Assembly (NCBI GenBank): GCA_963839205.1
Contig: CAWITU010000002.1
Location: 148,627-212,626, forward strand
Direction of reading: 5' to 3'
Length of the DNA: 64,000 bases
Origin: an uncultured bacterium
GTDB taxonomy: Bacteria > Patescibacteriota > Minisyncoccia > Phycocordibacterales > CAWITU01
Both the position numbers and the translations under genes were made by a program. Shown in pieces: positions 14,156 to 53,700 of this stretch (position 1 is the first letter of the stretch; each line of letters starts with the position of its first letter). Below the pieces are notes generated by a model. The model did no database searches. It worked only from the letters and a program-made list of their open reading frames with translations, and was not told the origin of the DNA.

Positions 14156-15171
14156 TTACTTAAGACCCGCTTTTATTTCTTTGAGGATTTCATTTGCAAT
14201 TTTTGAGTTCTCTTTCAAAAATTGTCTTGTAGCATCATATCCTCTCCCTAGAATTTCCTCTTTATACTTGTATGAGTTTCCAGATTTGGAAATAATCTCC
14301 ATTTTTTCTCCAAGGGCGATGATTTCACCTTCCCTTGAGATTCCTTCGTTGTACATAAGATCAAATTCGGTCTGTTTGAATGGAGCGGCAACCTTGTTTT
14401 TGACTACTTTAACTCTGACACGGCCACCCATAATTTCTTCGCCTTTCTTAATCTGGGCAATGCGACGAATATCAAGACGCACTGATGTGTAGAATTTTAG
14501 AGCCTTTCCACCTGGTGTCGTTTCAGGATTGCCAAACATCACGCCAATCTGCATTCTAATTTGGTTAATGAAAATAACAATTGTTTTGCTCTTAGCGACG
14601 ATACTTGTGAGCTTACGAAGAGCTTGAGACATGAGTCTGGCTTGTTTACCAACATGCATTGCTCCCATATCACCCTCAATTTCATCTTTTGGAGTAAGGG
14701 CTGCGACTGAGTCTATAACGATTACATCCATCTTTCCTGATCTAACAAGTGATTCAACAATTTCAAGAGCTTGCTCACCTGTGTCTGGTTGAGAAATTAA
14801 CAGTTCGTCAATTTTTACACCAAGTCTTTTGGCGTATTCTGGGTCCATGGCGTGCTCGGCATCTATAAAAGCACAGATGCCATCTTTCTTTTGAGCCTCT
14901 GCAATGACATGAAGGGTAGAGTTGTCTTTCCAGATGATTCTGGTCCAAAGACTTCAATAATGCGTCCTCTAGGAAGACCACCGACTCCAAGAGCGGCATC
15001 TAATCCAATTGAGCCAGTCGAAATAGCATTAACATTAACTCTCGGTTTATCACCGAGCTTCATGATTGAATCTTCACCGAACTTACTTCTAATTTGTTTT
15101 AGAGTGTCTTCGACGTTTGTGACCCCAACTGTTTTATCTTCCTTTGGTTCTTTCTTTTTTCCAAATGCCAT
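14156..15171 (-). pseudogene. recA: recombinase RecA, reading frame broken once (near 14915)
   Basis: The N-part ends [10 protein letters not shown] (Walker A). The C-part, read in another frame, continues [34 protein letters not shown] single-base indel at cta-ccc-ttc restores a normal RecA. Confidence 0.9.
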
Positions 15172-19423: not shown

Positions 19424-22400
19424 ATGAGTAATAAATTAAGAATAATCATTGGAGGTGTCGCCGCTTCTGCTGTCGCTCTTAGTGCCATCATTTCACTTGG
19501 TACTGTTGCTACTGCTTCTGCCGCTTCCTTCAGTGGATACACTTTCTCCGCTCCTCTTAAACAAGGATCAAGCGGTCAGGAAGTTTTGGAACTTCAGCAG
19601 GTTCTTAACTCGAACCCTGCAACACAAGTTTCAACAACAGGTGCTGGTTCCCCTGGTAATGAAACAACTTACTTCGGAGGCCTAACCAAAGCTGCAGTTA
19701 TCGCTTTTCAGAATCTTTATGCATCAAGCGTTCTTACACCACTTGGCCTGACATCAGGTACAGGATATGTAGGAGCTGCCACATTGGCAGAGCTTAATGC
19801 TATTGCTGCTGGTAGCCCAACTACAGTTACAACAACAACTGCTGGATGTGCTGCGGGTGCTGCTTTCAGTTCAACAACTGGACAGCCATGCACAACAAGC
19901 ACAACTACAGGTACAGTAACAACATCAGGAAATGTCACAGCTTCTCTTGCTGCTGACAATACTCCTGCTCGTTCTATTGTATTGGGTCAGTCTTCAGCTG
20001 AACTAGCTAGATTCGTCTTCAGTGGTAATGGATCAGTTACAAACGTAACTCTCCAACAGACTGGACTTTCTGCTTACAACAACACATTAAACAATGTCTA
20101 CCTATACAATGGTGGAACTCGTTTAACTGATTCAGGTTCAGTATCTTCAAATGGTGTCATTACTTTCAACAATCCAGCTGGATTGTTCACAGTAAGTGGT
20201 AGCATGGAAGTTACTGTCCGCGCCGACCTTGTTCCTGCTAGTCAGAACAGTGGTCAGACTGGAACTGTAGGTGTTGAACTTACAGGCTTTGCTGTTAACA
20301 GTGGTACTGAAGCTACAACAGCTTTGAATGGCAATTTGATGACAATCATCAATGTCACTCCTGCTCAAGTTACCTTTACACAACCAATCAGTAATCCAGT
20401 AGCTCCAGGCAATACTGTTAGTGTAAATGCTGGTACAACTAACTATACAATTTGGTCAAATACTCTCGGTGTTTCAACCCGAGCCGTTGATCTATATGAT
20501 GCAACATTCCAAATCGTAGGTTCAGCCCCAGCAAGTTCATTTGCTAACATCAAACTTTATGTTGATGGAACACAAGTTGGAAATGCTGGAACAATCCAGA
20601 ACATTAGTGGAAGCAGTTACATTGTCTTCGACGAAACTTCAAACCCATATGTAATCTCAACAGGTTCACATGATCTAGAAGTTAGAGCTGACATTGTCGG
20701 TGGTGCAAGTGATAACTTCACTGTCGCTATCCGAAATCCTGCTGACTTGATGTTACAAGACTCACAGCTTGCTGGTGTCTTCGTTGCTCCATCAACAACA
20801 ACTGTTGGTGTCGCTGCAATTCCTGGTAACACAGTAGAAGGAACAATTGACATTAACCAGGGTTCAAACTCTGTAACTAATGATCCTAACTTTACAACAA
20901 CAACTCTTTCTAGTGGATCAACAAATACGACAATTGCGTCGTATGTCTTCACTGGTTATGGTGAAAATGTAAAGATTTCTTCATTGAATGTTCTCCCACA
21001 ACTTACTGGTAGTTCTCTTGGTAACAGTTTGAACAACGTTTCACTTTATGCAAACGGTGCTCAGATTGGTTCAACTCAGAATTACAATGGAAATGGTACA
21101 CCTTTGTCCTTTAATCTCGGATCATCTTTGATTATCCCAGTTGGACAATCAGTTACAGTTTCTGTAAAAGCTGACTTGATTAATTCAACAAGTAGTAATC
21201 CTTACACAAGTGGTAATTTGGATGTCCAGTTGAGTTCTGTTACCTCTGGAAATGCTCAGGGTCAGAGTTCACAACAGTTGGCAACAATTCCTGCTTATGG
21301 AACTTATGTTCAAAGCCCAACTTTGACTATCGGTGGTAATTCAGTAACTGTTTCTGCAAACTCTGCTTACTCAAACCAGACAGTTGCTCCAAATACCGCA
21401 GCCTTCAAGGTTGGTTCATATACCATTCAAGCTGGCTCATCTGATAGCTTTAGAGTTACAAACTTGGTAGTCGGTGTTACTTCAAGTGCTGGGCTTACAA
21501 ACTAATCTTGCTAACTTGAAGGTTGTCGGAACTGGTATTGCAGTTAATCCTGTAAATCCACAAGGTTCAAACAACTTCTCAACTAACTTCACTATTCCTG
21601 AAAATGGTTCAACTCAAGTTGATGTCTATGCTGATGTTGGTGCCTCAATTGGTACTGCTTCAACAACATTGACTGTAACTGGTACAACCGTTTCAGGTAA
21701 TGTAAGTACAACAACTGCTGCTGTTAATGGTCAGAATATCTCAATCTCAACAGGTCAGCTTTCTACTCCAACAATTGTTACCTCAAATACTGCGGTATCA
21801 CAATATGTTGTTGGTGGAACCTCACCTCAGATTGCTGAGTACAACCTTGTATCAACTTCAAGTCCTGCTACTGTTCAAGAATTGCAGTTCACAGTTTCTG
21901 GTTCACAATCAGGTACTGTCAGTGCAGTTACTTTGAAAGTTAATGGTACGACTGTTGGTGGTCCTATTACTGTAAACAATGGTGTTGCCGACCTTTCAGG
22001 TCTTAACATCGCTGTTCCAGTAAGCAATGCCGGTATCTATCTTGATGTAGTTCCTACCTTTGGTGGAGTTGGTATTAACCAACCTGTCTCCTCTGGTGCT
22101 ACTACAACAATTGCTCTTACCTACCTCAAATCAATTTCTGGTAGCGTAACGACAGTTAATAGCACATTGAATGTTGGTTCAGGAAGCACAATTACATTAG
22201 TATCTTCAAAGCCTACAATCAGTATCGCAACACCATCAAATGTTACGTTAACTGCTGGTTTGGTTGAAGTTGCTGATGTAACAGTATCTGCTGACAGTAA
22301 TGGTTCAATCGGTCTTGCACAATTACCAATCAAAATCTCAACTGGTAACATCGCTCTAGGAAGCACCCAGCTTGTCGTTAAGGTTGGTGGAGTTCAGCTT

Positions 22401-22715
22401 TCAACAAATGTGTTGTCAGCCGCAAGCTCAACATTGTCAAGCACCAGTTCAAACGCTAGTGGTAACATAACCTTCAACACTGATAACAATGGACAAGGTT
22501 ATATCATCAGCGCCGGTCAGTCTGTAACCTTCCAGGTCTTCGCTACTCTAACAGGTGGTGGTGCATCAGGTACTACAGATTCAACTGTTACTTCGATTGG
22601 TACAAATACCAGCTTCAAGTGGATTGATATAAATGGAAATGCAACTCATCAACTCGATGGTTCAGCCATTTACAACTATCCAACTGGGCAGTCTTACTTG
22701 TCTCGATCTAACTAA
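19424..22715 (+). CDS. large repetitive cell-surface protein (PG-binding domain + about 8 beta-rich modules); one apparent frameshift near 21485
   Basis: Signal/anchor MSNKLRIIIGGVAASAVALSAI.., PG_binding_1-like segment (GSSGQEVLELQQVLN...LTKAAVIAFQ), Thr-rich linker, then repeated modules of about 110-130 aa ending ..V(R/K)AD(L/I). The two tracked ORFs join as ..SSAGLTN/NLANLKVVG. Confidence 0.7.
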
Positions 22716-22728
22716 CCTCTTGTGAATC

Positions 22729-22890
22729 TTCTGAAATAGGGAAACTTATTTCGGCCCCACTTCGCTCCTTCGGAGCTTCGACGGGGCAGGAAGATTTGGT
22801 TGAGAAAAGCCCTTCCGCTTTAAGCGGAAGGGCTTTTCTTTTTGCCAGTAATTTAATTTGGTACGTCTCTAGAGTAACTAGTATTGATTT
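22729..22890. repeat. copy A of a roughly 160-nt structured intergenic repeat (contains a terminator)
   Basis: TTCTGAAATAGGGAAACTTATTTCGGCCCC..GCTCCTTCGGAGC..GATTTGGTTGAGAAAAGCCC-hairpin-TTTTCTTTTT..ACGTCTC..TAGTATTGATTT. About 85% identical by eye to 23600-23757. Confidence 0.8.
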
Positions 22891-22964
22891 ATGATTTTGG
22901 TTTGAGTGTAACTTGAAACTTTTCAGTTATAGTCAAAGTATTATAGATAAGCTATAATCGACAT

Positions 22965-23291
22965 ATGAAAAAAGATACAAGCAATAGGGCCTTAATATTT
23001 GCCGGAATTACTGTATCTCCAGAGGAGAGTTTTAGGGTTGGTTTAGAAATCAAGAAGATAGGGGGACTGACTTTCAGCAAGATTAAAAGAAGCAAAGAAG
23101 GTTGGTTTACCCAATGCGACCAGGTTCCAGGCATTATTGCTGGTAATACTAATCCCAATCCAGACAATGTTGAAATTGAAGCTCATATCCGACAGGCAAT
23201 AATTGCAGCTTTTAATATAAAAGTTGTCGGAGAAACTTCCATTGAGTCTCCTTTTAGGTTCGAGTATGACAGTGTCTCACATAAGGAATAG
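22965..23291 (+). CDS. HicB-like antitoxin-fold protein
   Basis: GWFTQCDQVPGIIAGNTNPNPDNVEIEAHIRQAIIAAF resembles the HicB/UPF0150 N-domain. A HicA-like ORF follows after 5 nt. Confidence 0.55.
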   Translation: MKKDTSNRALIFAGITVSPEESFRVGLEIKKIGGLTFSKIKRSKEGWFTQCDQVPGIIAGNTNPNPDNVEIEAHIRQAIIAAFNIKVVGETSIESPFRFEYDSVSHKE

Positions 23292-23296
23292 GGGAA

Positions 23297-23590
23297 ATGG
23301 TCAGTTCAGGAATTACAAATCGTGAGCTGAAGAAGAGGCTGGGCAATATTGGTCAAAAGGAGTGGCTGAAACTTGCCAAAGACAATGAACTTTTGGTTCT
23401 ATCTGGTAAGAGCGGTTCTCATTACATTAACATTAGAGATCCAAAAAATTCTGATCCAAAAGATCCTCGTGGATTAATCACTACACTGATTCCCAAACTA
23501 TTTAAACAAGCTAATGAAGAAATTTTCAAAAGATTTCTTAAATATGGCCTTTCAGAAAATGATATTTGGAAGGGATTAGGAATGATGTAA
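23297..23590 (+). CDS. HicA-like (YcfA-type) putative toxin, divergent
   Basis: SGKSGSHYINIRDP motif (GSH core) and a C-terminal ..GLSENDIWKGLG similar to HicA C-termini. Confidence 0.45.
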   Translation: MVSSGITNRELKKRLGNIGQKEWLKLAKDNELLVLSGKSGSHYINIRDPKNSDPKDPRGLITTLIPKLFKQANEEIFKRFLKYGLSENDIWKGLGMM

Positions 23591-23599
23591 TTTTCTAAA

Positions 23600-23757
23600 T
23601 TCTGAAGTAGGGAAACTTATTTCAGCCCGCCTTCGCTCCTTCGGAGCTTCGGCGAGGCAGGGAGATTTGGTTGAGAAAAGCCCCCATAATGGGGGCTTTT
23701 CTTTTTGGGAGTAATCAAGGTTGTGTTATTACGTCTCGAAGTTAATAGTATTGATTT
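23600..23757. repeat. copy B of the roughly 160-nt structured intergenic repeat
   Basis: Same order of blocks as 22729-22890. The terminator stem differs in sequence (GCCCCCATAATGGGGGC versus GCCCTTCCGC..GCGGAAGGGC) but remains a hairpin. Confidence 0.8.
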
Positions 23758-23784
23758 TAGGTATTAATTTGCTATATTTATATC

Positions 23785-23873
23785 GTGCCTGTGGGCGAAA
23801 GCCCCGTTCAGCTAAGGTATTTCTAAGCTGAAGGCAGGCATAACAAAGGTACCGCCTCCGAGCGGTATTTTTG
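23785..23873 (+). ncRNA. candidate small structured RNA (three-way junction + intrinsic terminator)
   Basis: TTGATT-16nt-TATATT promoter-like boxes upstream. P1 TGCCTG/CAGGCA, P2 GGGC-GAAA-GCCC, P3 TTCAGCT/AGCTGAA, then a TACCGC/GCGGTA hairpin + TTTTT. Confidence 0.35.
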
Positions 23874-23965
23874 TTACTCATCAAGAAATCCTGTCCAGCA
23901 CTACATACTTAAAAGTTGGTGTCATAATTTGAAACTCAGCGCGTCTGGTGTTAGTATAGAAAGGT

Positions 23966-24286
23966 ATGAAAAATAATTTAAAACAAGGTTCAATACGAAC
24001 AATCATATTCAAAGAAGATGACATATGGTATGCCGTTGGTCTTGAGTTTAATATTGTGACCGAGGGAGACACCCCTGAGATGGCGTCTTTCAATCTTCAT
24101 GAGGCTATTTCAGGTTATGTAGAATCTCTACAACATAGTAAGGTAGGAGGAATGAGGACTGAGGCCACTCTAAACCAGAAGTCTGATCCTGAATATGAAA
24201 AGCTTTGGGATAAGCTAGAAGGCAATAAGCCTATTCCATCTCCGTACCATGTACATTCATTTGGTAGATTTCTTTTATCTAAATAA
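23966..24286 (+). CDS. hicB: HicB-family antitoxin
   Basis: IWYAVGLEFNIVTEGDTPEMASFNLHEAISGYVESL matches the HicB N-domain pattern. Immediately upstream of a clear HicA. Confidence 0.65.
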   Translation: MKNNLKQGSIRTIIFKEDDIWYAVGLEFNIVTEGDTPEMASFNLHEAISGYVESLQHSKVGGMRTEATLNQKSDPEYEKLWDKLEGNKPIPSPYHVHSFGRFLLSK

Positions 24287-24295
24287 TCATACTAA

Positions 24296-24526
24296 ATGCC
24301 GAATGGCCTAATGAATTGGACATTTGACGATGTAATTAAATTTCTAAAGAGACATTCTTTCCTCTATAACTATACGAAGGGAAGTCACTATTTCTATATT
24401 GGCTCTCATGGTGGCATCTCAAGACAAGTTGCTGTCCCATTTCACGGAAGTAAGAGCATAAAGCCAAGGACACTAAAGGGTATTATCCTCCAGTCTGGCA
24501 TATCAAAGGAAGAATGGATGAAATAA
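24296..24526 (+). CDS. hicA: HicA-family mRNA-interferase toxin
   Basis: VIKFLKRHSF...KGSHYFY...VAVPFHGSKSIKPRTLKGIILQSGISKEEW is the canonical HicA/YcfA pattern. Confidence 0.8.
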   Translation: MPNGLMNWTFDDVIKFLKRHSFLYNYTKGSHYFYIGSHGGISRQVAVPFHGSKSIKPRTLKGIILQSGISKEEWMK

Positions 24527-24604
24527 ATAAGGATGTAAGTCGTAACAAAATACAAGCTATCACGTCTTATTATGTAAGAGTATTAAAAGTTTAATTATAA
24601 AAAT

Positions 24605-25096
24605 ATGGATAAAAATTCCAAGATTGTCTGGACGGTTGTGGCTGTTGTAGTAATCATTATTTTGGGTATTTGGATTTGGACAGCTAATAGCGTGTCAGTA
24701 ACTCCTGTAACTGATACAGGGACGGCTACAACGACTGCAACAACAACTGTTGCAACTACTACAGTTCAGGCTGCTGAAGTTGGACTTACAGCCGGACAAC
24801 CAGCTATCGCTTATGAGGACGCGCTCTCACTTTATGCTAATGAGCGAATCCAGTTTAGTAATCCGGGAGCTACTGCGACTTGTCAGGCGCTTCCAACTGC
24901 AGTGACTTTCCGATCTGGTGTTTCGTTTATGCTTGATAACAGATTAGATAGAACTGCCGTTATCCATTTCACAACTGGTGTTGTTTATACACTACCTGCC
25001 TATAGTTTTGAAATCATTACTCTAAATAGCATTCATTCATACAATGTTGATTGTAATGCCTCCCAGAACGTAGTTACTGTATCTATCCAGAAATAA
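24605..25096 (+). CDS. TM-anchored secreted hypothetical protein with Thr-rich linker
   Basis: N-terminal TM (IVWTVVAVVVIIILGIWIW), TGTATTTATTTVATTTV linker, globular C-domain. Confidence 0.5.
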   Translation: MDKNSKIVWTVVAVVVIIILGIWIWTANSVSVTPVTDTGTATTTATTTVATTTVQAAEVGLTAGQPAIAYEDALSLYANERIQFSNPGATATCQALPTAVTFRSGVSFMLDNRLDRTAVIHFTTGVVYTLPAYSFEIITLNSIHSYNVDCNASQNVVTVSIQK

Positions 25097-25376: not shown

Positions 25377-28324
25377 ATGAAAAAAATAATTAAATTAGGT
25401 TCCGGTATTTTACTATCGACACTTTTTATTATTGGTAATGCTCATGCTTCAACCATTGTTTCGGGCGATATCACAACCGATACCACTTGGACCGAATCTG
25501 GCAGTCCATACATTCTTTCAAATATTATTCAAGTGGCGCCTGGGGCGACTCTAACTATTGACCCAGGCACCACGATTCAATTTGATCCAAGCCCCGATAA
25601 CCAATCAGTTTTTATTGCTGATAATGGAACAATTAAGGCGCAAGGAGATATTGATAATCCGGTAAAATTCAATGGAGTTGGTCTTTATTTTTATTCAGCA
25701 AGCTCAACATTGCGAAATCTCTCTTTTGAAAATGCGGGTTCCGCTATTTCTTTATTCGGCGGAAGCCATATTGATGCAAATAATATTTTAGTTGTTAACA
25801 CGTCTGGGAAATCCAGCAATTCAAATTTATGAGAATTCTTATCTTTCACTTGCCAGTAGTACTATCACCAACAGTCACGGTCAGTACGCTGTTGAAATTT
25901 ATGAATCAAATGCAGACATATCAAGTTCAACATTCTCAGGCGGAGATAACGTGGGGTTCGGGCTATATGGTGCTAATTTGAAATTAGATCATTCTGTTAT
26001 CAGCCATTTTACATCAGGTCTCTATTCTTTTGATGAAGTTGGTTCTTCAAGTACATTTGTCTCAATCAGAAATTCAGAAATATCAAATAATCAGTTTGGA
26101 ATTAAGTCTTGGGGTAATGGCAATAATTTTTCAATATCGACGAGTACCATTTACGGCAATACTTCCTACGGAATTTATAATTATGATTCTAACCAACTAT
26201 CTGCCGAAAATAATTGGTGGGGAGATCCATCTGGCCCGAAGAATCAAACAGCTAATCCAAAAGGTATGGGTAATTCAGTTTCAGATAATGTTTTAGTTTC
26301 ACCATGGCAAGTTTCCTGGCCACCAGTTTTAAAAGATCCATGCTGTTCTAATGTTTTATTTATTCCAGGAATTGAGACAAGTCGGCTATATTCAGGAAAT
26401 TCCACAACAACCGAAAAGCGCTTGTGGGAACCAAATATGATTACAAGCACAGTTCCAAAACTTTTTCTTAATACAGACGGGACAAGTCAGGATTCATCAA
26501 TTCACGTCAAAGACGTTATTGCTACGAGTAGTATTTGTAATTGCTTTCTTGATCAAGATGTTTATGCAGATTTCAATTCCTTCATGGATTTACTGAAGAA
26601 AAACGGAACCATAAACGATTGGCAAACTGTTCCGTATGATTGGCGTCTGGATATGAATAGCGATATTGATAACGGCATACAATACCCAAATGGCGTTATT
26701 TGAATATCATAGATCAGTTGAGATCCGAAGCTAGTTCATCAAAGACTCATAAGGTGACAATAATTACTCATAGTAATGGTGGGACTATTTGCCAAATTGC
26801 TTTTATATAAACTTGAGCAGATGAAAATTAAATCAGAGTGACAATTTAATTGACTCAATCGATAAGGTAATTATGGTGGCTGCTCCACAAATAGGAACTC
26901 CTGATGCTCTTGGCGCACTCCTTCACGGGGATGATCAGTCCATTGGTTACGGCGGTTATATCTTGAATGGCACAACGGCCCGGAGTCTCGCTGAAAACAT
27001 GCCGACCGCATATGCATTATTACCTTCATCTGCGTATTTTCAAAATGCCAGTGACACAGTAATAAGTTTTGATGAAGGGGCAAAGAAAATATCAGGATTT
27101 TCACACTATGGTTCTGCGATCACCGATAAGAGCACTCTAAGTAATTTTCTACTGAGTAATAACGATTCAAGAACTAAGCCACCTGCGAGCGATTTAAACG
27201 ATCCAAATATTTTAAATAGTAGCTCTAATAGTGAAGGCCGATCGAGCTTCACTCTATAATTGATAATTTTGTCGCTCCATCATCAACTCAGATTTATAAG
27301 ATAGCGGGTGTTGGCGTGGATACATTAAAAAGTATTGATTATTCAACGGCAGAAGATTGTACCATTCCATATATTCTCAATTGTAAAAATGTACTGACAA
27401 GGACTTTAGCAAAGAACCGCTCTGGGTGACGGCACGGTTATAAGTAAGAGTGCAATCTACGGAGGGGGCCAAGGTTTCTATGTAAACTTGCTCAAGAAGA
27501 ATATGGATTCTAGTACTAATTATAATCACCAAACAATTATGGAGGTTCCAGAGGTGGATCAATTTATCCAAAATATATTTACTAATGCAACTCAGACCCC
27601 GAATTATATTACTTCTATACCGGCTGATGTATCAAACACAAACAAACTTGAATTAAGTGTTCACTCGCCGGTTTCACTGGATGTTTATGATCAAAACGGC
27701 AGACATGTTGGTTTATCAAAAATTGCTTCATCAACACCCGATGGTAGTTTTATTGATACTCAAATACCAAATAGTCAGTATTATCAGATTGGAGATGATA
27801 AATATATAACTATTCCAAATGCCGCAAACTATACAGTAAAACTTCAAGGACAGGCGCAAGGTTCGTTCACACTAGATACCGAGACTTTAAGTGGGGATAA
27901 TGTTGTGTCATCAAGTAGCTTTGAAGACGTACCGGTTTCAACATCGACTGAGGCAACTCTTTCAATTTCTTCTAGTATACCCGTCGCTAGTAGCACTCTA
28001 TCAGTTGATTTGAATGGTGATGGTAAATCTGATTATGTTTTGAAATCAGATCAATCTGGCGATTTAAATCTATATCTACAGAGTATTAAAAATATGATTA
28101 CCGGTTTAGGCCTAACTTCAAAGATCCAAGATGAATTATTTATGAAATTGGATAAACTCTCGGCTCAGTATAAAAGTGGTAAAATTAAAGATGTTGAAAG
28201 GAAGATCAAAGAATATATTTATCGGCTCAAAAAAGAAGAAGGACCACGTCATCGAATTAATGCAACAGATAGGGACGAGCTCGTGACTATCTTCCAAGAT
28301 TTCCTAAATGATTTAACACCATAA
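25377..28324 (+). pseudogene. secreted parallel-beta-helix + alpha/beta-hydrolase (lipase-like) protein, fragmented by at least 5 frame changes
   Basis: Signal peptide MKKIIKLGSGILLSTLFIIGNAHAS, beta-helix repeats and NNWWGDPSGP, nucleophile elbow ITHSNGG (in a third frame near 26770), then VIMVAAPQIGTP. The pieces lie in frames 0/1/other/2. Confidence 0.7.
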
Positions 28325-28704: not shown

Positions 28705-30424
28705 ATGAAGAGTGCTCTTATCAGGCTAAGATTTGTCTCGGTAATAATTATTCTCATTGGTCTGGTTCTTATTGTAAGACTTTTTTCTCTGCAGGTAGTA
28801 TCCGGTTCGGACTTTAGAGATGAAGCAAACCAACAATACATAGCACCGACTAGCAATATATACGACAGAGGTTCAATCTTTTTCCAGGATAAAGATGGAA
28901 ATCTTTTGGACGCTGCAAATCTTGAGAATGGATATATTATGGCGATTAATCCTGAATTGGTTACCGATCCAGAAGGTGAGTATTCTAAGATTCAAAATAT
29001 TTTACCTACTGACCACACCACATTCATCCAGAAGGCTACAAAGAAAAACGATAAATATGAACAAATTGCTGATAGAGTAAATTCAACAACTACTAATGCC
29101 GTGATTGCCTTGAATCTTCCAGGAGTAAGTTTTTATCAAGAAAAATGGCGTGATTATCCACTAAGTACGCTAGCCTCCCAGGTTATTGGATTTGTCGGCT
29201 ATGATGGGAATATTCTTGATGGGAGATACGGATTGGAAAAATATTACGACAGTACTTTGGAAAGGACCAACCAAGATCAAAATGTGAATCCTTTTGCTGC
29301 TCTTTTTGCTAGTATTCCTTCAGTTATAAATTGTGATTCCAACGCAAAAGAGGGTGACATTGTAAGTACGATTGATCCGAACGTTGAATCCTATCTTGAG
29401 CAAGAATTACAGACATTACAAGATGACTACCATTCAAAAATTTCTGGCGGAATTATTATTGACCCAAATACAGGTACAAATATATGCCATGGCTGGTAAT
29501 CCATCTTTTGATCCAAACACTTATCAAGATGTTGATGACATTGGAGTTTACACTGATCCACTGGTTCAGAATGTTTATGAACTTGGTTCAATTATGAAAT
29601 CAGTGACGATGGCAATTGGAATTGATACAGGAGCAGTTACCGCTACAACTACTTATGATGATACGGCCTCAATCACTTTAAACGGTAAGACAATTCACAA
29701 TTGGGATCTTACTAGTCACGGACTTATAAATATGCAAAAAGTCTTGAATGACTCTCTCAACGTTGGTGCGGCTTATGTCGAAAGTAAAACCGGTAATCAG
29801 AAGTTTGCAGATTACATGTTTAATTTTGGTTTTGGTGGAAAAACTGGTATCGATTTACCTGGTGAAGCCACTAATCTCGTAGCCAACTTAAAAAGTTCTC
29901 AAGATGTTAACTATGCGACAGCGGCTTTCGGGCAGGGTATTGCGGTAACTCCAATTTCAATGGTTCGCGCTTTGAGTGCGCTAGCAAATGGAGGCTATCT
30001 CATTACACCTCATATCATAAGCCAAATACAATATACAGATGGCACTGTTGAAAATATTAATCCACCAAAAGGGGCACAAGTTATCTCAACTTCAACATCA
30101 AAAATTATTACAGGAATGCTTGTAAATGTGGTGGACCAAGCTATGGATGCCGATGTTGGAGGTGGATTGAAACAGGCTCATTACGCAATTGCGGCAAAAA
30201 CTGGAACCGCCCAACTTGTTGATACTCAGGATGGTGGTTATTATGATAATCGATTTCTACATTCTTTCTTTGGCTATTTTCCAGCAAATAATCCACGTTT
30301 TCTCATCTTTCTTTTCACTGATGATCCACAGGGGCAGGAACTGGCTGTCCATACTCTAGCATTTCCTTTCATAGACATTGCTAAGTTTATGATAGGCTAC
30401 TATAGTATTCCACCAGATAGATAA
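28705..30424 (+). pseudogene. penicillin-binding protein 2 / FtsI-type transpeptidase (one apparent frameshift near 29475)
   Basis: N-terminal TM and dimerisation domain. Transpeptidase motifs S-I-M-K (SxxK), SLN, KTGT. The junction reads IIIDPNTG/QIYAMAGNPSFDPN. Confidence 0.85.
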
Positions 30425-36435: not shown

Positions 36436-37243
36436 AACCATCACGACTGAATTATGTTAAAAACATCCAATTTTAAGCGGCCAAAATAACAGCTATTTTT
36501 AACTGTTGTCTTGAGAAGACCGCTAAAAGCGGTTTTTTTAATAACATAACCGACTGTAACTTGAAAAAATAATCCCGCAGCAACGTTCCCTTTTATACAA
36601 GGGGTCTTTAAGACGTTGAACAGCGGAAACAGGTAAATTCCAAACAGTAAGTTTGGAATAGTAGAATAAACAAAAAACGTGGTTTTTAAATATCCTAATA
36701 GGATATTAAGAGCGTATGGTGGATGCCTAGACTCCAAAGAGGCGATGAAGGACGTGGCGTAGCTTACGATAAGCTTCGGGGAGGTGCCTAGCAACCTTTG
36801 ATCCGAAGATTTCCGAATGGGGAAACCCCACTTGATTTAATTCAGGTGATCTCTTCGCAAGAAGAGGAGCAAACCCGGGGAAGTAAAACATTTCAGTACC
36901 CGGAGAAAAAGAGACTAATAAGAATTTCCTAAGTAGCGGCGAGCGAAAAGGAAGAAGCCCAAACTCAGCCTTCCTATAGAGGGCACTCGTAAACTCGTTT
37001 ACTCGAGTATGCGTCGTACACTCTATTGGGTGGCTGGGGGTTGTAAGGTGACAGTCGTATTTGATACAAAGAGTTACAAAATAATTCGTTAATAGAAAAC
37101 GCTGGAAAGCGTTGCCCTAGAGGGTAATAGCCCCGTACATGAAAATGAATTATCTCTAACTGTCATTCTTGAGTACTTCGAGACACGAGTGGCTCGGAGG
37201 AATCTGCCGGAACTAACCGGTAAGGCTAAATACTCTTGGAGAT

Positions 37244-37282
<39 letters not shown>

Positions 37283-38721
37283 GCCCGACGAGGGCAGTGA
37301 AATAGATCTGAAACCATACGTTTACAAGGTGTCGAAGAGGTGCTTGCACCTCGACGGCGTGCCTATTGAAGAATGAGCCAACGAGTTGATGCATATTGCA
37401 GACTAAGCCCGAGAGGGTGGAGTCACAGGGAAACCGAGCGTGAATAGCGCGTAAGTATTATGCATCAGACCCGAAGCCAAGTGAGCTTGTCATGTGCAGG
37501 GTGAACCAGGGAGAAATCTCTGGGGAGGCCCGAACCGGTAAGCCGTTCAATACTTTCGGACGACATGTGATAAGAAGTGAAAAGCTAATCGAACTTGGTA
37601 ATAGCTGGTTCTCTCCGAAATAGCTTTTGGGCTAGCGTCGGATGTTCCTCTTAGGGGTAGAGCACTGGAAGGTCTCGACAGGTCGAAAGATCGCGAGACC
37701 TATCAAACTCCGAATACTAAGAGTTAAGAATCCGGCAGTTAGACTGCGGGGGCTAAGCTCCGTCGGTCAAAAAGGAAACAGCCTAGATCTCAAGTTAAGG
37801 TCCCTAAATTTATGCTAAGTGCACTTAAGGCGGTGAAATTTCTCTGACACTGAGGAGGTTGGCTTAGAAGCAGCCATCCTTTAAAGAAAGCGTAACAGCT
37901 CACTCAGTAAGAGATTTCGCACCGAAGATAATCGGGGCTAAGCATAGTACCGAAACTGAGGGTTTATTTTGTCTTAGGACAAAGTGAGCGGTAGGAGAGT
38001 ATTCTAATCTGCTGTGAAGGTAAAGGGGTGACCCATACTGGAGCGTTTAGAAGTAAGAATGTTGGCACAAGTAACCACAATGCGAGTGAAAAACTCGCAC
38101 GTCGAAAGATCAAGGTTTCCTTGGCAATGATTGTCAGCCAAGGGTTAGTCGGGCCTAAGGGGATGGCGAACGCCGAACCCAATGGACACATGGTTAATAT
38201 TCCATGACTTCTTCATTTTCTGATGGAGTGACAAAGGTCAGTATTGTACGCGATTTATGGATTATCGTTATTGGATTAAGGGTGTTTTACAGGCAAATCC
38301 GTAAGACATAAGCCCAAGATCAGATAAAATGCTTCGCTTAGGCGAAGATAATGTACAAAAGCGGCCTTTCAAGAAAAGCTTCTAAAGATAAAAATGAAGG
38401 AACCGTACCGCAAACCGACACAGGTGATCAGCTCGAGTAGAGCAAGACGAACGAATGAGAGGTCCCCAAGGAACTCGGCAAAAAAGCAGCCGTAACTTCG
38501 GAATAAGGCTTGCCCTTTGTTAACTCAAAGGGCCGCAGCTAAAGTATCTCTGGCAACTGTTTATCAAAAACACAGCTCCCTGCGAACTCGTAAGAGGATG
38601 TATAGGGGGTGACACCTGACCAATGCCAGAAGGTCAAATATCGACGTTGATAGTAGCAATATTATTGGTGATTGATATAAGCCCTGGTGAATGTCGGCGA
38701 TAACTATAATCGTCCTAAGGT

Positions 38722-38956
38722 TCTCAACTGATTCTTTTTGAATGAGTTGAGAAGGACTGGGACGATCATAGGAAATGATAAATAGTTTTAATAATCAAAG
38801 TTAATTACACAAAAGCTACCTACAATGCAGTAATGTATTGTTAGTCCAATATGGTTAATAAGAGACCAACACCATACATCCTAAACAATTTTGCAACGGA
38901 CTTGTCCTCTGCGAAGTCGAAGGATGAAGATAGAGTCCAACTTGAAGGAATAGTTG
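38722..38956 (+). other. 235-nt group-I-like intron/IVS in 23S after U1931
   Basis: The flanks join to CCTAAGGT|AGCGAAATTCC (conserved sequence). The insert follows a T and ends in G. R/S-like blocks AAGAGACCAACA and AAGATAGAGTCC. No ORF. Confidence 0.65.
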
Positions 38957-39619
38957 AGCGAAATTCCTTGTCTGGTAAGTTCAGACGCGCACGAATGGTG
39001 TAATGACTGGAGAACTGTCTCGGGGACTTGTTCGGTGAAAATACAATACCGGTGAAGATGCCGGTTACCTGCAGTTAGACGAAAAGACCCCAGAAGCTTT
39101 ACTACAACTTGGTATTGAGGATATGTTTTTGATGCGTAGCATAGTGGTGAGACTTTGAAGTTTTGTTCTCGGATAAAATGGAGTCAACAGTGAAATAGCC
39201 ATCTTTAAAAATATATTTTCTAACCTCATCGGTAAAAACGGTGAGAGACAGTACCTGGCGGGTAGTTTTAGTGGGGCGCTATCCTCCTAAAGAGTAACGG
39301 AGGAGTTTATTAAGGTTAGCTAGGCGCGAATGGAAACCGTGCCGATAGTGTAATGGCATAAGCTAGCTTGACTGCAAGACGGATATGTCGAGCAGGTGCG
39401 AAAGCAGGACATAGTGAACCGACGGTCCGTATTAGATGCGGCCGAAGATTATCAGACAAAAGCTACTCTGGGGATAACAGGCTGGTTGCGCCTAAGAGTC
39501 CAAATCGACGGCGCAGTTCGGCACCTCGATGTCGGCTCATCATATCCTGGGGCTGGAGAAGGTCCCAAGGGTTTGGCTGTTCGCCAATTAAAATGATACG
39601 CGAGCTGGGTTCAGACCGT

Positions 39620-39916
39620 TCAGAATCGAATTTTTTCGGTTTTGGACCGTCTGAATCGTCGAGGAAATATTATTGTTGCGACCACGCAATATCTGTTAAC
39701 TTGTCCATCACGGCGGCCATAAGGAGAAATTCTTGTGTGCACAGCTGACTTATATCGGTGAATTCCACATTCTATGAAAAGAAGTGCGAGGACGCCTAGG
39801 GAAAATAAAACGAAATTTTATTGCCCGTAGAGACTAAACGTCAGCCATCTTCGTTTGAATTTATTCAAAACAGATGATTACATAGTCCATTCCACACAGT
39901 GATGTGTGAAAAGAAG
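39620..39916 (+). other. 297-nt group I intron in 23S after U2593 (peptidyl-transferase centre)
   Basis: The flanks join to GGGTTCAGACCGT|CGTGAGACAGGTT. The insert follows a T and ends in G. R-like GTAGAGACTAAACG (39827-39840) pairs via GACTA/TAGTC with S-like ACATAGTCC (39880-39888). No ORF. Confidence 0.75.
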
Positions 39917-39968
39917 CGTGAGACAGGTTGGTCTCCTATCTACTGCAGGCGTTGATTTTTGAGAAGAT

Positions 39969-39999
<31 letters not shown>

Positions 40000-40310
40000 T
40001 GACCTCTGGTGTGTCGGCTGTCCTGCCAAGGGCACTGCCGAGTAGCTAAGTCGGGAAAGGATAAACTCTGAAAGCATCTAAGAGTGAAGCCTACTTCAAG
40101 ATTAGAAATCGTAAGACCCGTAGGAGATGACTACGTTGATAGGCGCTAGGTGTAAGACAAGCAATTGTTTCAGCCGAGGCGTACTAATTGTCATTCCTAT
40201 TAGGAAATTTGGAAGTCACGCATTTGTTTATCGGCGCAGGCGAATATCAGTTGAAAAGGTTTTGCGCCACAGAATACCTGTTTAAATAAATTAAAGATCG
40301 AACGTTCAAT

Positions 40311-40419
40311 TCTGGTGATTTGGCGGAAGGGCAACACCTGTTCTCATTCCGAACACAGAAGTTAAGCCTTCTTGCGGCGATGATACTCTTTTGGAGGGGA
40401 AAGTAGCTAGTCGCCAGTA
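40311..40419 (+). rRNA. rrf: 5S ribosomal RNA
   Basis: TCTGGTGA..CCGAACACAGAAGTTAAGC..TCGCCAGT with paired termini, about 100 nt after the 23S. Confidence 0.9.
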
Positions 40420-49462: not shown

Positions 49463-49837
49463 ACCCCCTACGTCCTTAATGGGCGGTTCTTTGAAAATTA
49501 TCTGTCTAAAATCACGATTTATCTTGAATTTAGACAGATTGAAATATTGCCCTGTGTAGCTTTAGCGTAGAGCGGGTAGGACCGAGAACGTATTAACGCT
49601 CTGTATTGCCTCCTATCGAGCAGCTATGGAGGGAAAACGTGCAAGTCAATTAAAATATTTTTTTGTTCTCCCGCGGAGCTCGTCAGAGCAAAGTGGGAGT
49701 AAATAATTCCAAAAACAATGATCAATTGTTGGATGAGCTAGGATCAAACTTGTTGGTGAAATATAAATTTAGATTAAGTACTATTTTTTATTTTGCCTCA
49801 TTCTAATAAATATAAGTATTTATACTTTTTATTTAAT

Positions 49838-51324
<1,487 letters not shown>

Positions 51325-53577: not shown

Positions 53578-53650
53578 CGGAGCATAGTGTAACGGCTAAC
53601 ATACACGATTCGGGTTCGTGTGATTCTGGGTTCGAATCCCAGTGCTCCGA
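53578..53650 (+). tRNA. tRNA-Pro (anticodon CGG), CCA not encoded
   Basis: Acceptor CGGAGCA/TGCTCCG, anticodon stem-loop CACGA-TTCGGGT-TCGTG, T arm CTGGG-TTCGAAT-CCCAG. Confidence 0.9.
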
Positions 53651-53677
53651 TGTAAGAGGCGAATCCCAGTGCTCCGA
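53633..53677 (+). repeat. 18-nt direct duplication of the tRNA-Pro 3' end
   Basis: CGAATCCCAGTGCTCCGA occurs at 53633-53650 (inside the tRNA) and again at 53660-53677, separated by TGTAAGAGG. Confidence 0.9.
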
Positions 53678-53700
53678 AAACAGAAGTTGAAGTTAATGAT

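Follow-up and report, generated by a model that had tools for sequence, protein, structure and literature searches.

Two direct repeats of ~165 nt flank a small toxin-antitoxin-like gene pair (hereafter cassette 1) in the stretch of DNA analyzed here, a 64-kb window (64,000 nucleotides) of contig CAWITU010000002.1 from an uncultured bacterium of the Patescibacteriota. The repeats, copy A (22723-22890) and copy B (23596-23761), lie on the + strand with a spacing of 871 nt. Our analysis indicates that the repeat is probably a native intergenic module, situated between a surface-protein gene and a gene encoding a 163 amino acid protein, that was duplicated locally when the promoter-bearing cassette 1 inserted. 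At the level of sequence, comparison with related lineages demonstrates that the module is native to the locus, that both cassette 1 and a second cassette (cassette 2) were inserted, and that the repeat has a hairpin-plus-terminator architecture. What had seemed an exotic "structured cassette boundary" thus becomes a fairly ordinary module duplication of modest interest, and the wider value of the locus lies in a hairpin and junction family to which one part of the repeat is related.

Architecture and native origin of the repeat

To characterize the repeat, we combined repeat searches, alignment and RNA folding of both copies. An 84-nt direct repeat (22729-22812 versus 23600-23683, 92% identical, spacing 871 nt) was recovered, in agreement with the coordinates, block order and spacing proposed in a first-pass annotation of this DNA. 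A MAFFT alignment of copies A and B has a mean column identity of 85%, a distal block of 32 nt common to both copies is 75% identical, and the differences cluster in the outer stem of one hairpin, in the terminator top and in an indel-rich stretch past the U-run. As that annotation had also reported, each copy directly follows a stop codon: copy A starts 8 nt past that of the surface-protein gene (22713-22715) and copy B starts 5 nt past that of the hicA-like open reading frame (ORF) of 97 amino acids (23588-23590). Repeat and sequence searches found no further copy within the 64-kb window. An independent Logan assembly (L001) matches window positions 22810-25095 with one mismatch and spans terminator A through copy B; because it reproduces the layout, the repeat is not an assembly artefact.

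Each copy folds into a three-way junction (helices P1, P2 with a GAAA loop, and P3) followed by an intrinsic terminator. On the + strand the predicted fold reaches -66.8 kcal/mol in copy A (z -7.1 versus shuffles) and -55.8 kcal/mol in copy B (z -4.9); the minus strand of both copies folds less well and loses P2 in copy B. P2 has a GNRA-type (GAAA) loop and G-U pairs, and an A-to-G difference between the copies keeps its pair only in the + strand RNA. The first-pass annotation had described terminator stems that differ in sequence and nevertheless fold in both copies, which we can refine: the lower stem (AGAAAAGCCC/GGGCTTTTCT) and the U-tract are the same in copies A and B, and the tops differ completely. 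As expected of intrinsic terminators, both copies have stems of 14-18 bp followed by UUUUCUUUUU. It should be noted that a simple terminator scanner missed both, probably because a C in the U-run leaves no window with five T in eight at an offset of 0-2 nt. The features of the locus are as follows.

22723-22890 (+): copy A, the native module of the surface-protein gene, comprising 3' untranslated region (3'UTR), terminator and promoter elements, at the same position as the intergenic module of cassette-free relatives
22725-22796 (+): three-way junction of copy A (minimum-free-energy and centroid folds, z -7.1)
22725-22731 paired with 22790-22796 (+): P1 of copy A (AAUCUUC/GAAGAUU), from the fold
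22732-22753 (+): P2 of copy A, with GAAA tetraloop, from the fold
22754-22787 (+): P3 of copy A, a 34-nt intergenic imperfect palindrome, from the fold
22760-22780 (+): P3 core of copy A, 21 nt and invariant, CTTCGCTCCTTCGGAGCTTCG; it represents a widespread hairpin core resembling repetitive extragenic palindromic (REP) sequences
22802-22843 (+): intrinsic terminator A (A-tract, GC stem, U-tract), whose top CCCUUCCGCUUUAAGCGGAAGGG resembles hairpin H2 of a widespread module
22863-22890 (+): distal block of copy A, ACGTCTC ... AGTATTGATTT, with a -35-like TTGATT at 22884-22889
~22891-23595 (+): inserted cassette 1; the gene pair recurs elsewhere in four genomic contexts, and relatives lack it at the syntenic site
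22930-22958 (+): cassette 1's own promoter, TAGTCA-17-TATAAT, with the -10 box 6 nt before the ATG
22965-23291 and 23297-23590 (+): cassette 1 ORFs of 108 and 97 amino acids
23596-23761 (+): copy B (alignment, repeat search and fold)
23597-23602 and 23662-23668 (+): 5' and 3' strands of P1 in copy B
23603-23624 (+): P2 of copy B
23625-23658 (+): P3 of copy B, with its core at 23631-23651
23673-23706 (+): terminator of copy B
23731-23761 (+): distal block of copy B
23751-23778 (+): promoter-like site straddling the end of copy B, TTGATT-16-nt spacer-TATATT with a TG extension (promoter scan)
23966-24526 (+): inserted cassette 2, an ORF of 106 amino acids (23966-24286) and HicA (24296-24526; Pfam HicA_toxin, E 2e-11), absent from the relatives' syntenic site
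24562-24595 (+): third, partial copy consisting of the distal block only, ACGTCTT ... AGTATTAAAAG, immediately before the gene for the 163 amino acid protein (24605-25096)

The order along the locus is surface protein (19424-22715, PG_binding_1 domain), copy A, cassette 1, copy B, a second structured RNA termed RNA2, cassette 2, the partial block and the gene for the 163 amino acid protein. The weaker third match that had been noticed at about 24563-24595 is real as a bipartite motif, ACGTCTY-N9-10-AGTATT, which occurs exactly three times in the window (at 22863, 23731 and 24562), each time preceding a unit; none is expected in shuffled sequence, in a comparison that is post hoc since the pattern was derived from these same three sites.

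To determine whether the module belongs to the locus, we reached syntenic loci via homologues of the 163 amino acid protein (54-59% identity) in four related lineages of the Candidate Phyla Radiation (CPR, Patescibacteria), represented by loci L151-154, L155-158, L159 and L160. The longest (L151 and L152) contain FtsK, a gene for a protein of ~250 amino acids, a peptidoglycan (PG)-binding surface protein of ~1000-1065 amino acids, a gene for a protein of 166-171 amino acids, an LCAT/beta-helix gene, L10 and L12; the shorter loci show matching parts of this order, and all hold the surface-protein gene followed by the small gene. The gap between these two genes measures 111-203 nt in all four lineages, and no cassette is present at the syntenic site in any of them. 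Because the four lineages are cassette-free at this site, both cassettes are insertions in the lineage of the window.

The relatives' intergenic regions contain one or more hairpins after the stop codon and then a terminator composed of A-tract, GC stem and U-tract (folds with z -6.8 to -8.4), and a CGTCT-containing sequence (CGTCA in L160) lies upstream of the next gene. Sequence similarity extends into the module in L159: on the 5' side CTTGTGATCTC matches CTTGTGAATCTTC of copy A (in common, CTTGTGA(A)TCT(T)C), and into the terminator GCAGAGA..TAGTCGCAAAAAGCC matches GCAGGAAGATTTGGTTGAGAAAAGCC of copy A (in common, GCAG..AGA..T.GT.G..AAAAGCC). Both strands of P1 are conserved in L159, where the helix is one U-A pair shorter: a U is missing from the 5' strand and the matching A from the 3' strand. 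Since L159 and the other relatives share sequence and architecture with it, copy A is the vertically inherited module of the locus, and since copy B lacks the native CTTGTG lead-in and starts at P1, copy B is the duplicate.

The boundaries of the inserted DNA are consistent with this. The conserved region upstream of cassette 1 (TTTGAGT; TTTGACT in homologues) starts at most a few bases from copy A's right end, and its second ORF ends 5 nt before copy B, which places the inserted DNA at ~22891-23595 with a 168-nt target duplication on either side. The TTGATT of copy A has no -10 partner and cassette 1 DNA lies directly 3' of it, as expected if cassette 1 landed just past the -35 box.

Proposed function and alternative explanations

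Taking into account these features, the module consists of a stable RNA three-way junction placed a few bases past a stop codon, a canonical Rho-independent terminator, and a promoter-proximal block (ACGTCTY-N9-10-AGTATT with the -35-like TTGATT) for the next transcription unit. Junction and terminator, acting as + strand RNA, would end the upstream transcript (surface-protein mRNA for copy A, cassette 1 mRNA for copy B) and shield it from 3' exonucleases, and the distal block would belong to the next promoter and help to start the next unit. After the duplication, cassette 1, which brings no terminator of its own, would have one both behind and in front of it and would be insulated on both sides, and the downstream genes and units would retain their terminator-promoter unit, including its upstream block. 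The 168-nt duplication may have arisen by Campbell-type integration, if a circle brought in a diverged version of the module, or by an accident of replication or repair. The locus offers a clean and dated case of the way in which small cassettes with their own promoters become established in the intergenic regions of reduced CPR genomes and leave their neighbors undisturbed. The first-pass annotation had offered three readings of the repeat, of which a shared 3'UTR stabilizer plus promoter/operator module is the best supported, as the same architecture is found in four cassette-free lineages.

Several points weigh against this explanation. We know of no standard insertion mechanism that yields a 168-nt flanking duplication. 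The copy count covers the 64-kb window, part of a contig at least 279 kb long, and further copies may be present elsewhere in the source genome. That the module actually terminates, stabilizes and promotes transcription is something we infer from its parts. P1 is weaker in copy B than in copy A. Finally, identity between the copies is uneven, with a junction at 92%, a terminator top that is entirely different and a distal block at 75%; such divergence would not be predicted for a simple neutral duplicate and suggests selection, gene conversion or an incoming diverged copy.

This last observation bears on the proposal that the repeat is a cassette boundary or recombination site, through which the 871-bp unit would move as a circle by site-specific or homologous recombination, comparable to integron attC or genomic-island att sites. 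Copies that are both diverged and mosaic are what would be expected if an incoming copy had recombined with the resident one, Campbell-type integration is the simplest route to flanking direct repeats, and such repeats do flank DNA that is demonstrably inserted, so that this much of the earlier proposal stands; furthermore, REP-like hairpins are known hot spots of recombination and insertion (PMC3733652). Even so, we regard a recombination site as unlikely, taking into account that the repeat is native at the locus in cassette-free relatives, that homologous cassettes elsewhere lack it, that the attC core sites are absent, that the 17 larger ORFs scanned at 12.9-33.2 kb include no integrase or transposase, and that the unit does not follow cassette 2. 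The remaining reading of the first-pass annotation, a small non-autonomous mobile element (similar to miniature inverted-repeat transposable elements, MITEs, or to REPINs, REP doublets forming hairpins) comprising the whole 160-nt unit and transposed twice, is very improbable. The family of the P3 core is indeed repeated in many genomes, sometimes inside ORFs or as terminator tops, which would fit a mobile origin; yet recurrence is limited to the 21-nt core, no match elsewhere was found for P2, the junction strands or the distal block, the 64-kb window and the 148 kb of related CPR loci searched contain no more copies, and P1 and the terminator are vertically inherited at the locus. Since the 160-nt unit was seen only here, it is best described as a local duplication, the outcome that the annotation itself had named as a refutation, and mobility may apply to the 21-nt core of P3.

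A further possibility is that the junction regulates in cis, in the manner of a riboswitch or attenuator, or gives rise to a small RNA from the 3'UTR, and in this way controls read-through into the cassettes or their expression. Its layout is aptamer-like, with a three-way junction bearing a GNRA loop directly before a terminator, the junction (92%) is better conserved between the copies than the rest of the repeat, and a second junction-plus-terminator RNA (RNA2) lies just downstream. We nonetheless consider this improbable: no antiterminator pairing is evident in the folds and no Rfam family matches, the orthologous 3'UTRs have unrelated hairpins and hence no conserved ligand pocket, both cassettes are served by promoters of their own that lie past the terminator, and the junction is known from two sequences only, too few for covariation. 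The native module, duplicated around cassette 1, remains the explanation that we favor.

Other specific identities were examined and set aside. A hammerhead or other ribozyme was considered because CUGAAGU resembles CUGANGA; there is no GAAA core strand and no Rfam match. With respect to attC sites, the 3' half contains a single GTT, in GTTGAGA, which ends in A where R' (GTTRRRY) requires a pyrimidine, there is no RYYYAAC (R'') at the 5' end of copy B, and the fold is a three-way junction with a separate terminator and not a single long hairpin. An antiterminator pairing of the 3' strand of P3 with the 5' strand of the terminator amounts to 4 bp only and is not kept in copy B.

Database searches agree with the statement of the first-pass annotation that no described family matches. 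Rfam searches at gathering and permissive thresholds with the window, 15 loci of the P3 hairpin family and one tRNA-linked module (described below) gave no relevant match, the weak ones being generic terminator stems, and a full-text literature search for the hairpin sequence strings found no paper. A scan of JGI metagenomes with GATTTGGTTGAGAAAAGCC gave four chance matches, none with the rest of the element, and scans of IMG/VR gave 13 chance matches with a 17-mer and none with a 20-mer.

The P3 core and a widespread hairpin family

Analysis of P3 revealed that its core is not confined to this locus. A scan of a genome collection with an 18-mer inside P3 (TCGCTCCTTCGGAGCTTC) identified at least 120 loci in many phyla, versus ~17 matches expected by chance (our own estimate, which assumes uniform base composition and counts both strands of 596 Gb). 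The matches listed include Alphaproteobacteria, Acidobacteriota, several CPR phyla, Dependentiae, Planctomycetota, Kiritimatiellia and Methylomirabilota, among others. The outer stems of these matches covary: among the matches listed, at least five of six pairs form in 72 of 118 unique sequences (18% with shuffled partners), with 30 different stems. Also among the matches listed, at least 26 of 121 begin 4-5 nt, often exactly 4 nt, past the 3' end of a tRNA or tmRNA, the CCA of which joins the stem. The generic form, found on either strand, consists of an outer stem, G(A/T)A-GC ... GC-GAA and the outer stem again, with variable inner loops; with paired flanks it occurs 122 times in 0.9 Mb versus 13 times in an offset control, and its copies cluster at 2-4 per locus.

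For 12 of the tRNA-linked cases, RNAalifold predicted a three-way junction. The elements of this tRNA-linked module are the following.

Long-range helix: CCA-N-CCUUC with GAAGG-N'-UG; the N/N' pair covaries
Core hairpin: GCUCC-UUC-GGAGC flanked by UUC/UUC; invariant
Second hairpin: GGCU-GGCA-AGCC
Hairpin H2: G(A/U)A x GAA internal loop

A covariance model (R1) was built from the tRNA-linked sequences, and matches of at least 45 bits were taken as full. The model recovered 30 full-length matches of ~110 nt at this threshold, spread over many phyla and including CPR loci that are not tRNA-adjacent (L023, L041, L123 and L132); examples among the 30 loci are L078:6007-6120 (-), L082, L045, L120, L059, L023, L041 and L109. 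In the resulting alignment, which was fitted to the model and for this reason favors structure, 96% of cells are paired and 19 of 26 pairs show changes on both sides versus 6.7 in shuffles; pairing falls to 37-55% when the partners are slid. The ~110-nt module and its hairpin family have no Rfam match, the full-text literature search for strings from their sequence gave no paper, and neither the hairpin family nor the full repeat of the window matches plasmids or phages by blastn.

Both window copies contain the exact 21-nt core and are partial matches only to model R1, with 34.4 and 28.2 bits: the long-range helix is down to 3 bp, the second hairpin is unpaired, and only the top of terminator A is placed on hairpin H2 by the covariance-model alignment. 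The core was found neither in the orthologous 3'UTRs of the four relatives, whose hairpin sequences are unrelated to those of the window, nor in 148 kb of other CPR loci. Judged from these sequence comparisons, the best explanation is that P3 and the terminator A top were added in this lineage and come from a widespread family of REP-like hairpins, and P3 is best read as an acquired fragment of that family inside a native 3'UTR structure closed by P1. The acquisition would have preceded the duplication, or else the copies were homogenized afterwards. A CAGG "tail" past P3, considered as a further feature of the family, occurs in core-free relatives as well (GGCAGG in L155, GCAG in L159) and is probably native.

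In addition to full modules, we observed the core in other settings. In L095 (~590-640) and L105, from Uhrbacteria and a Patescibacteria metagenome-assembled genome (MAG), the same 20-nt core tops ordinary intrinsic terminators (AAAATCCCCC, core, GGGGGATTTTT), which suggests insertion into pre-existing hairpin loops or recruitment as a terminator cap. The core also lies within long ORFs of 1162 amino acids in Peribacteria (L099:2270-2372), 645 amino acids (L127) and 489 amino acids (L132), the first of which resembles ribonucleotide reductase, judged by eye. Two MAGs assigned to different phyla, Lentisphaerales (L028) and Saccharibacteria (L081), have identical sequence around the core, probably through binning contamination or a shared mobile contig.

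A possible reading of these observations, which we put forward tentatively, is that the 21-nt core marks an uncatalogued cross-phylum family of structured elements, either a new kind of miniature mobile element that targets hairpins or a new RNA motif with a role in the metabolism of tRNA or mRNA 3' ends, that was newly acquired in the CPR 3'UTR of the window. As part of the same tentative proposal, the full form of the family would be a ~110-nt three-way junction plus hairpin whose first helix includes the CCA of the tRNA or tmRNA, with shorter forms in terminator tops, in 3'UTRs and apparently in long ORFs. On this view, the newly acquired core would possibly have helped to cause the 168-nt flanking duplication. 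This family is the part of our analysis that may be new and, provided that no earlier description exists, would be a candidate new RNA motif or miniature mobile element.

Neighboring features and comparison with known systems

The first-pass annotation had called the gene pair between the repeats HicBA-like. The label is borne out only for cassette 2, which encodes the HicA listed above and is not followed by the repeat unit; for cassette 1 the identity is plausible from sequence and structure-model comparisons whose matches are not significant. The cassette 1 proteins have no Pfam or NCBIfam match, and an hhalign comparison with the HicA of the window gives a weak match of 44% probability around a GSHY motif. 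The AlphaFold model of the 97 amino acid protein (predicted local distance difference test, pLDDT, 86.6) has HicA 6g26_F as its top PDB match (weak, E 0.35), and the best PDB matches of the model of the 108 amino acid protein are dsRBD folds and 2dsy (TTHA0281), also weak (E 0.08-0.8). We take the latter to be a member of the HicB-like UPF0150 family.

The 97 amino acid protein has 17 homologues besides itself (49-73% identity), and those that are named come from "Patescibacteria group bacterium". Homologues of the cassette 1 pair (61-73% identity) are found in L139, L144, L149 and L150, in four unrelated contexts: in one the pair separates dus from a DNA polymerase III delta'-like gene, in another it lies between rpsR and efp, and the other two include that of L150, where the pair adjoins a gene with a phage SU10-adaptor domain. 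All four homologous cassettes have their own TATAAT box 6-7 nt before the ATG. Their flanks contain no repeat, three-way junction or terminator of their own, and blastn-short comparison of these flanks found no similarity beyond 12-13-mers. The homologue between rpsR and efp (L144:4660-5282, 66% identity) lies in an efp-recA-ftsK neighborhood that is also found 5-10 kb upstream of the cassette in the window; because it sits in this same neighborhood, the gene pair relocates within a conserved region.

RNA2 (23785-23875, +), located between copy B and cassette 2, is a candidate small structured RNA composed of a three-way junction with a GAAA loop (23785-23841) and its own terminator (23842-23875). 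Its predicted fold reaches -46.9 kcal/mol (z -5.9), a TTGATT-16-TATATT promoter-like site lies just upstream, and it has no match in Rfam. The 17 larger ORFs scanned encode housekeeping and envelope proteins (EF-P, RecA, FtsK, PBP2, FemAB and others) or have no family match; no integrase, recombinase, transposase or REP-associated tyrosine transposase (RAYT) gene was found among them, and no recombinase within ~10 kb of the repeat. Exact-sequence look-ups of the window proteins returned only one short Logan contig from the same organism.

Other observations concern the remainder of the window. Split or truncated genes are present at 19424-22715, 25377-28324, 28705-30424 and 14156-14848: the surface protein reads as 693 and 413 amino acids in two frames, the LCAT/beta-helix gene as four fragments and PBP2 as two overlapping ORFs, and RecA starts at profile position 92, with intact orthologues in L151 for the surface protein (1058 amino acids) and LCAT (1013 amino acids). 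Either assembly indel errors or gene decay would account for this. The 23S gene match (36696-40419) spans 3509 nt versus a model of 2925 nt, and for this reason at least one insertion in the gene is probable; 23S and 5S form a pair that is not linked to the 16S gene (49834-51324), which follows on the same strand ~9 kb downstream. The long 23S match, the unlinked rRNA genes and the named homologues of the 97 amino acid protein all point to a genome of CPR/Patescibacteria type. At 53578-53690, the last 18 nt of a tRNA (CGAATCCCAGTGCTCCGA) recur 10 nt downstream of the gene, which may represent an att-type remnant of an integrated or excised element.

Among known systems, integron attC and genomic-island att sites resemble the repeat in being structured direct repeats located right after stop codons and flanking an inserted toxin-antitoxin-like cassette. 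The repeat differs from them in that it has no R''/R' core sites and no integrase among the 17 scanned ORFs, is native and not cassette DNA, and bounds one cassette only on both sides.

REP elements and their composites (bacterial interspersed mosaic elements, BIMEs, and REPINs) offer a second comparison. Like them, P3 is a 34-nt imperfect palindrome, extragenic and just past a stop codon, and the hairpin family is intergenic, occurs in either orientation and clusters at 2-4 copies per 8 kb. GTAG-3 REPs are composed of a stem, non-complementary trinucleotides and a short loop flanked by GC (Di Nocera et al. 2013, PMC3733652), and the hairpin family is built likewise, its outer stem and non-complementary trinucleotides enclosing a short inner hairpin flanked by GC; the literature on REPs and palindromes offered no analogy beyond this one of architecture. 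One end of REP elements bears a conserved tag, GTAG or CGTC, that stays unpaired (PMC3733652), whereas no such tag flanks P3 or the family consensus, in which G(T/A)AG is present only as an internal loop. Furthermore, the inner core of the hairpin family is invariant and its outer stem variable, the reverse of classical REPs, and an identical core is shared across many phyla. REPs typically reach high copy numbers within one genome, whereas P3 was counted twice in the 64-kb window and not at all in the related CPR loci (148 kb).

The hairpin family, though not the window copies, also recalls the Rickettsia palindromic elements (RPEs), as the motif lies inside the long ORFs of L099, L127 and L132. 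If these ORFs are real genes, such copies would be in-frame insertions reminiscent of RPEs, a resemblance judged by inspection; the sequences are unrelated to those of RPEs, and the hairpin family is spread across phyla.

The repeat also resembles intrinsic terminators with 3'UTR stabilizer hairpins, since a GC-rich stem flanked by A- and U-tracts follows a structured region just past the stop codon, here as in the four related lineages. What sets the repeat apart from these is that its stabilizer is a three-helix junction with an imported REP-like hairpin, and that the whole unit, together with the upstream block of the next promoter, is present twice around an inserted cassette.

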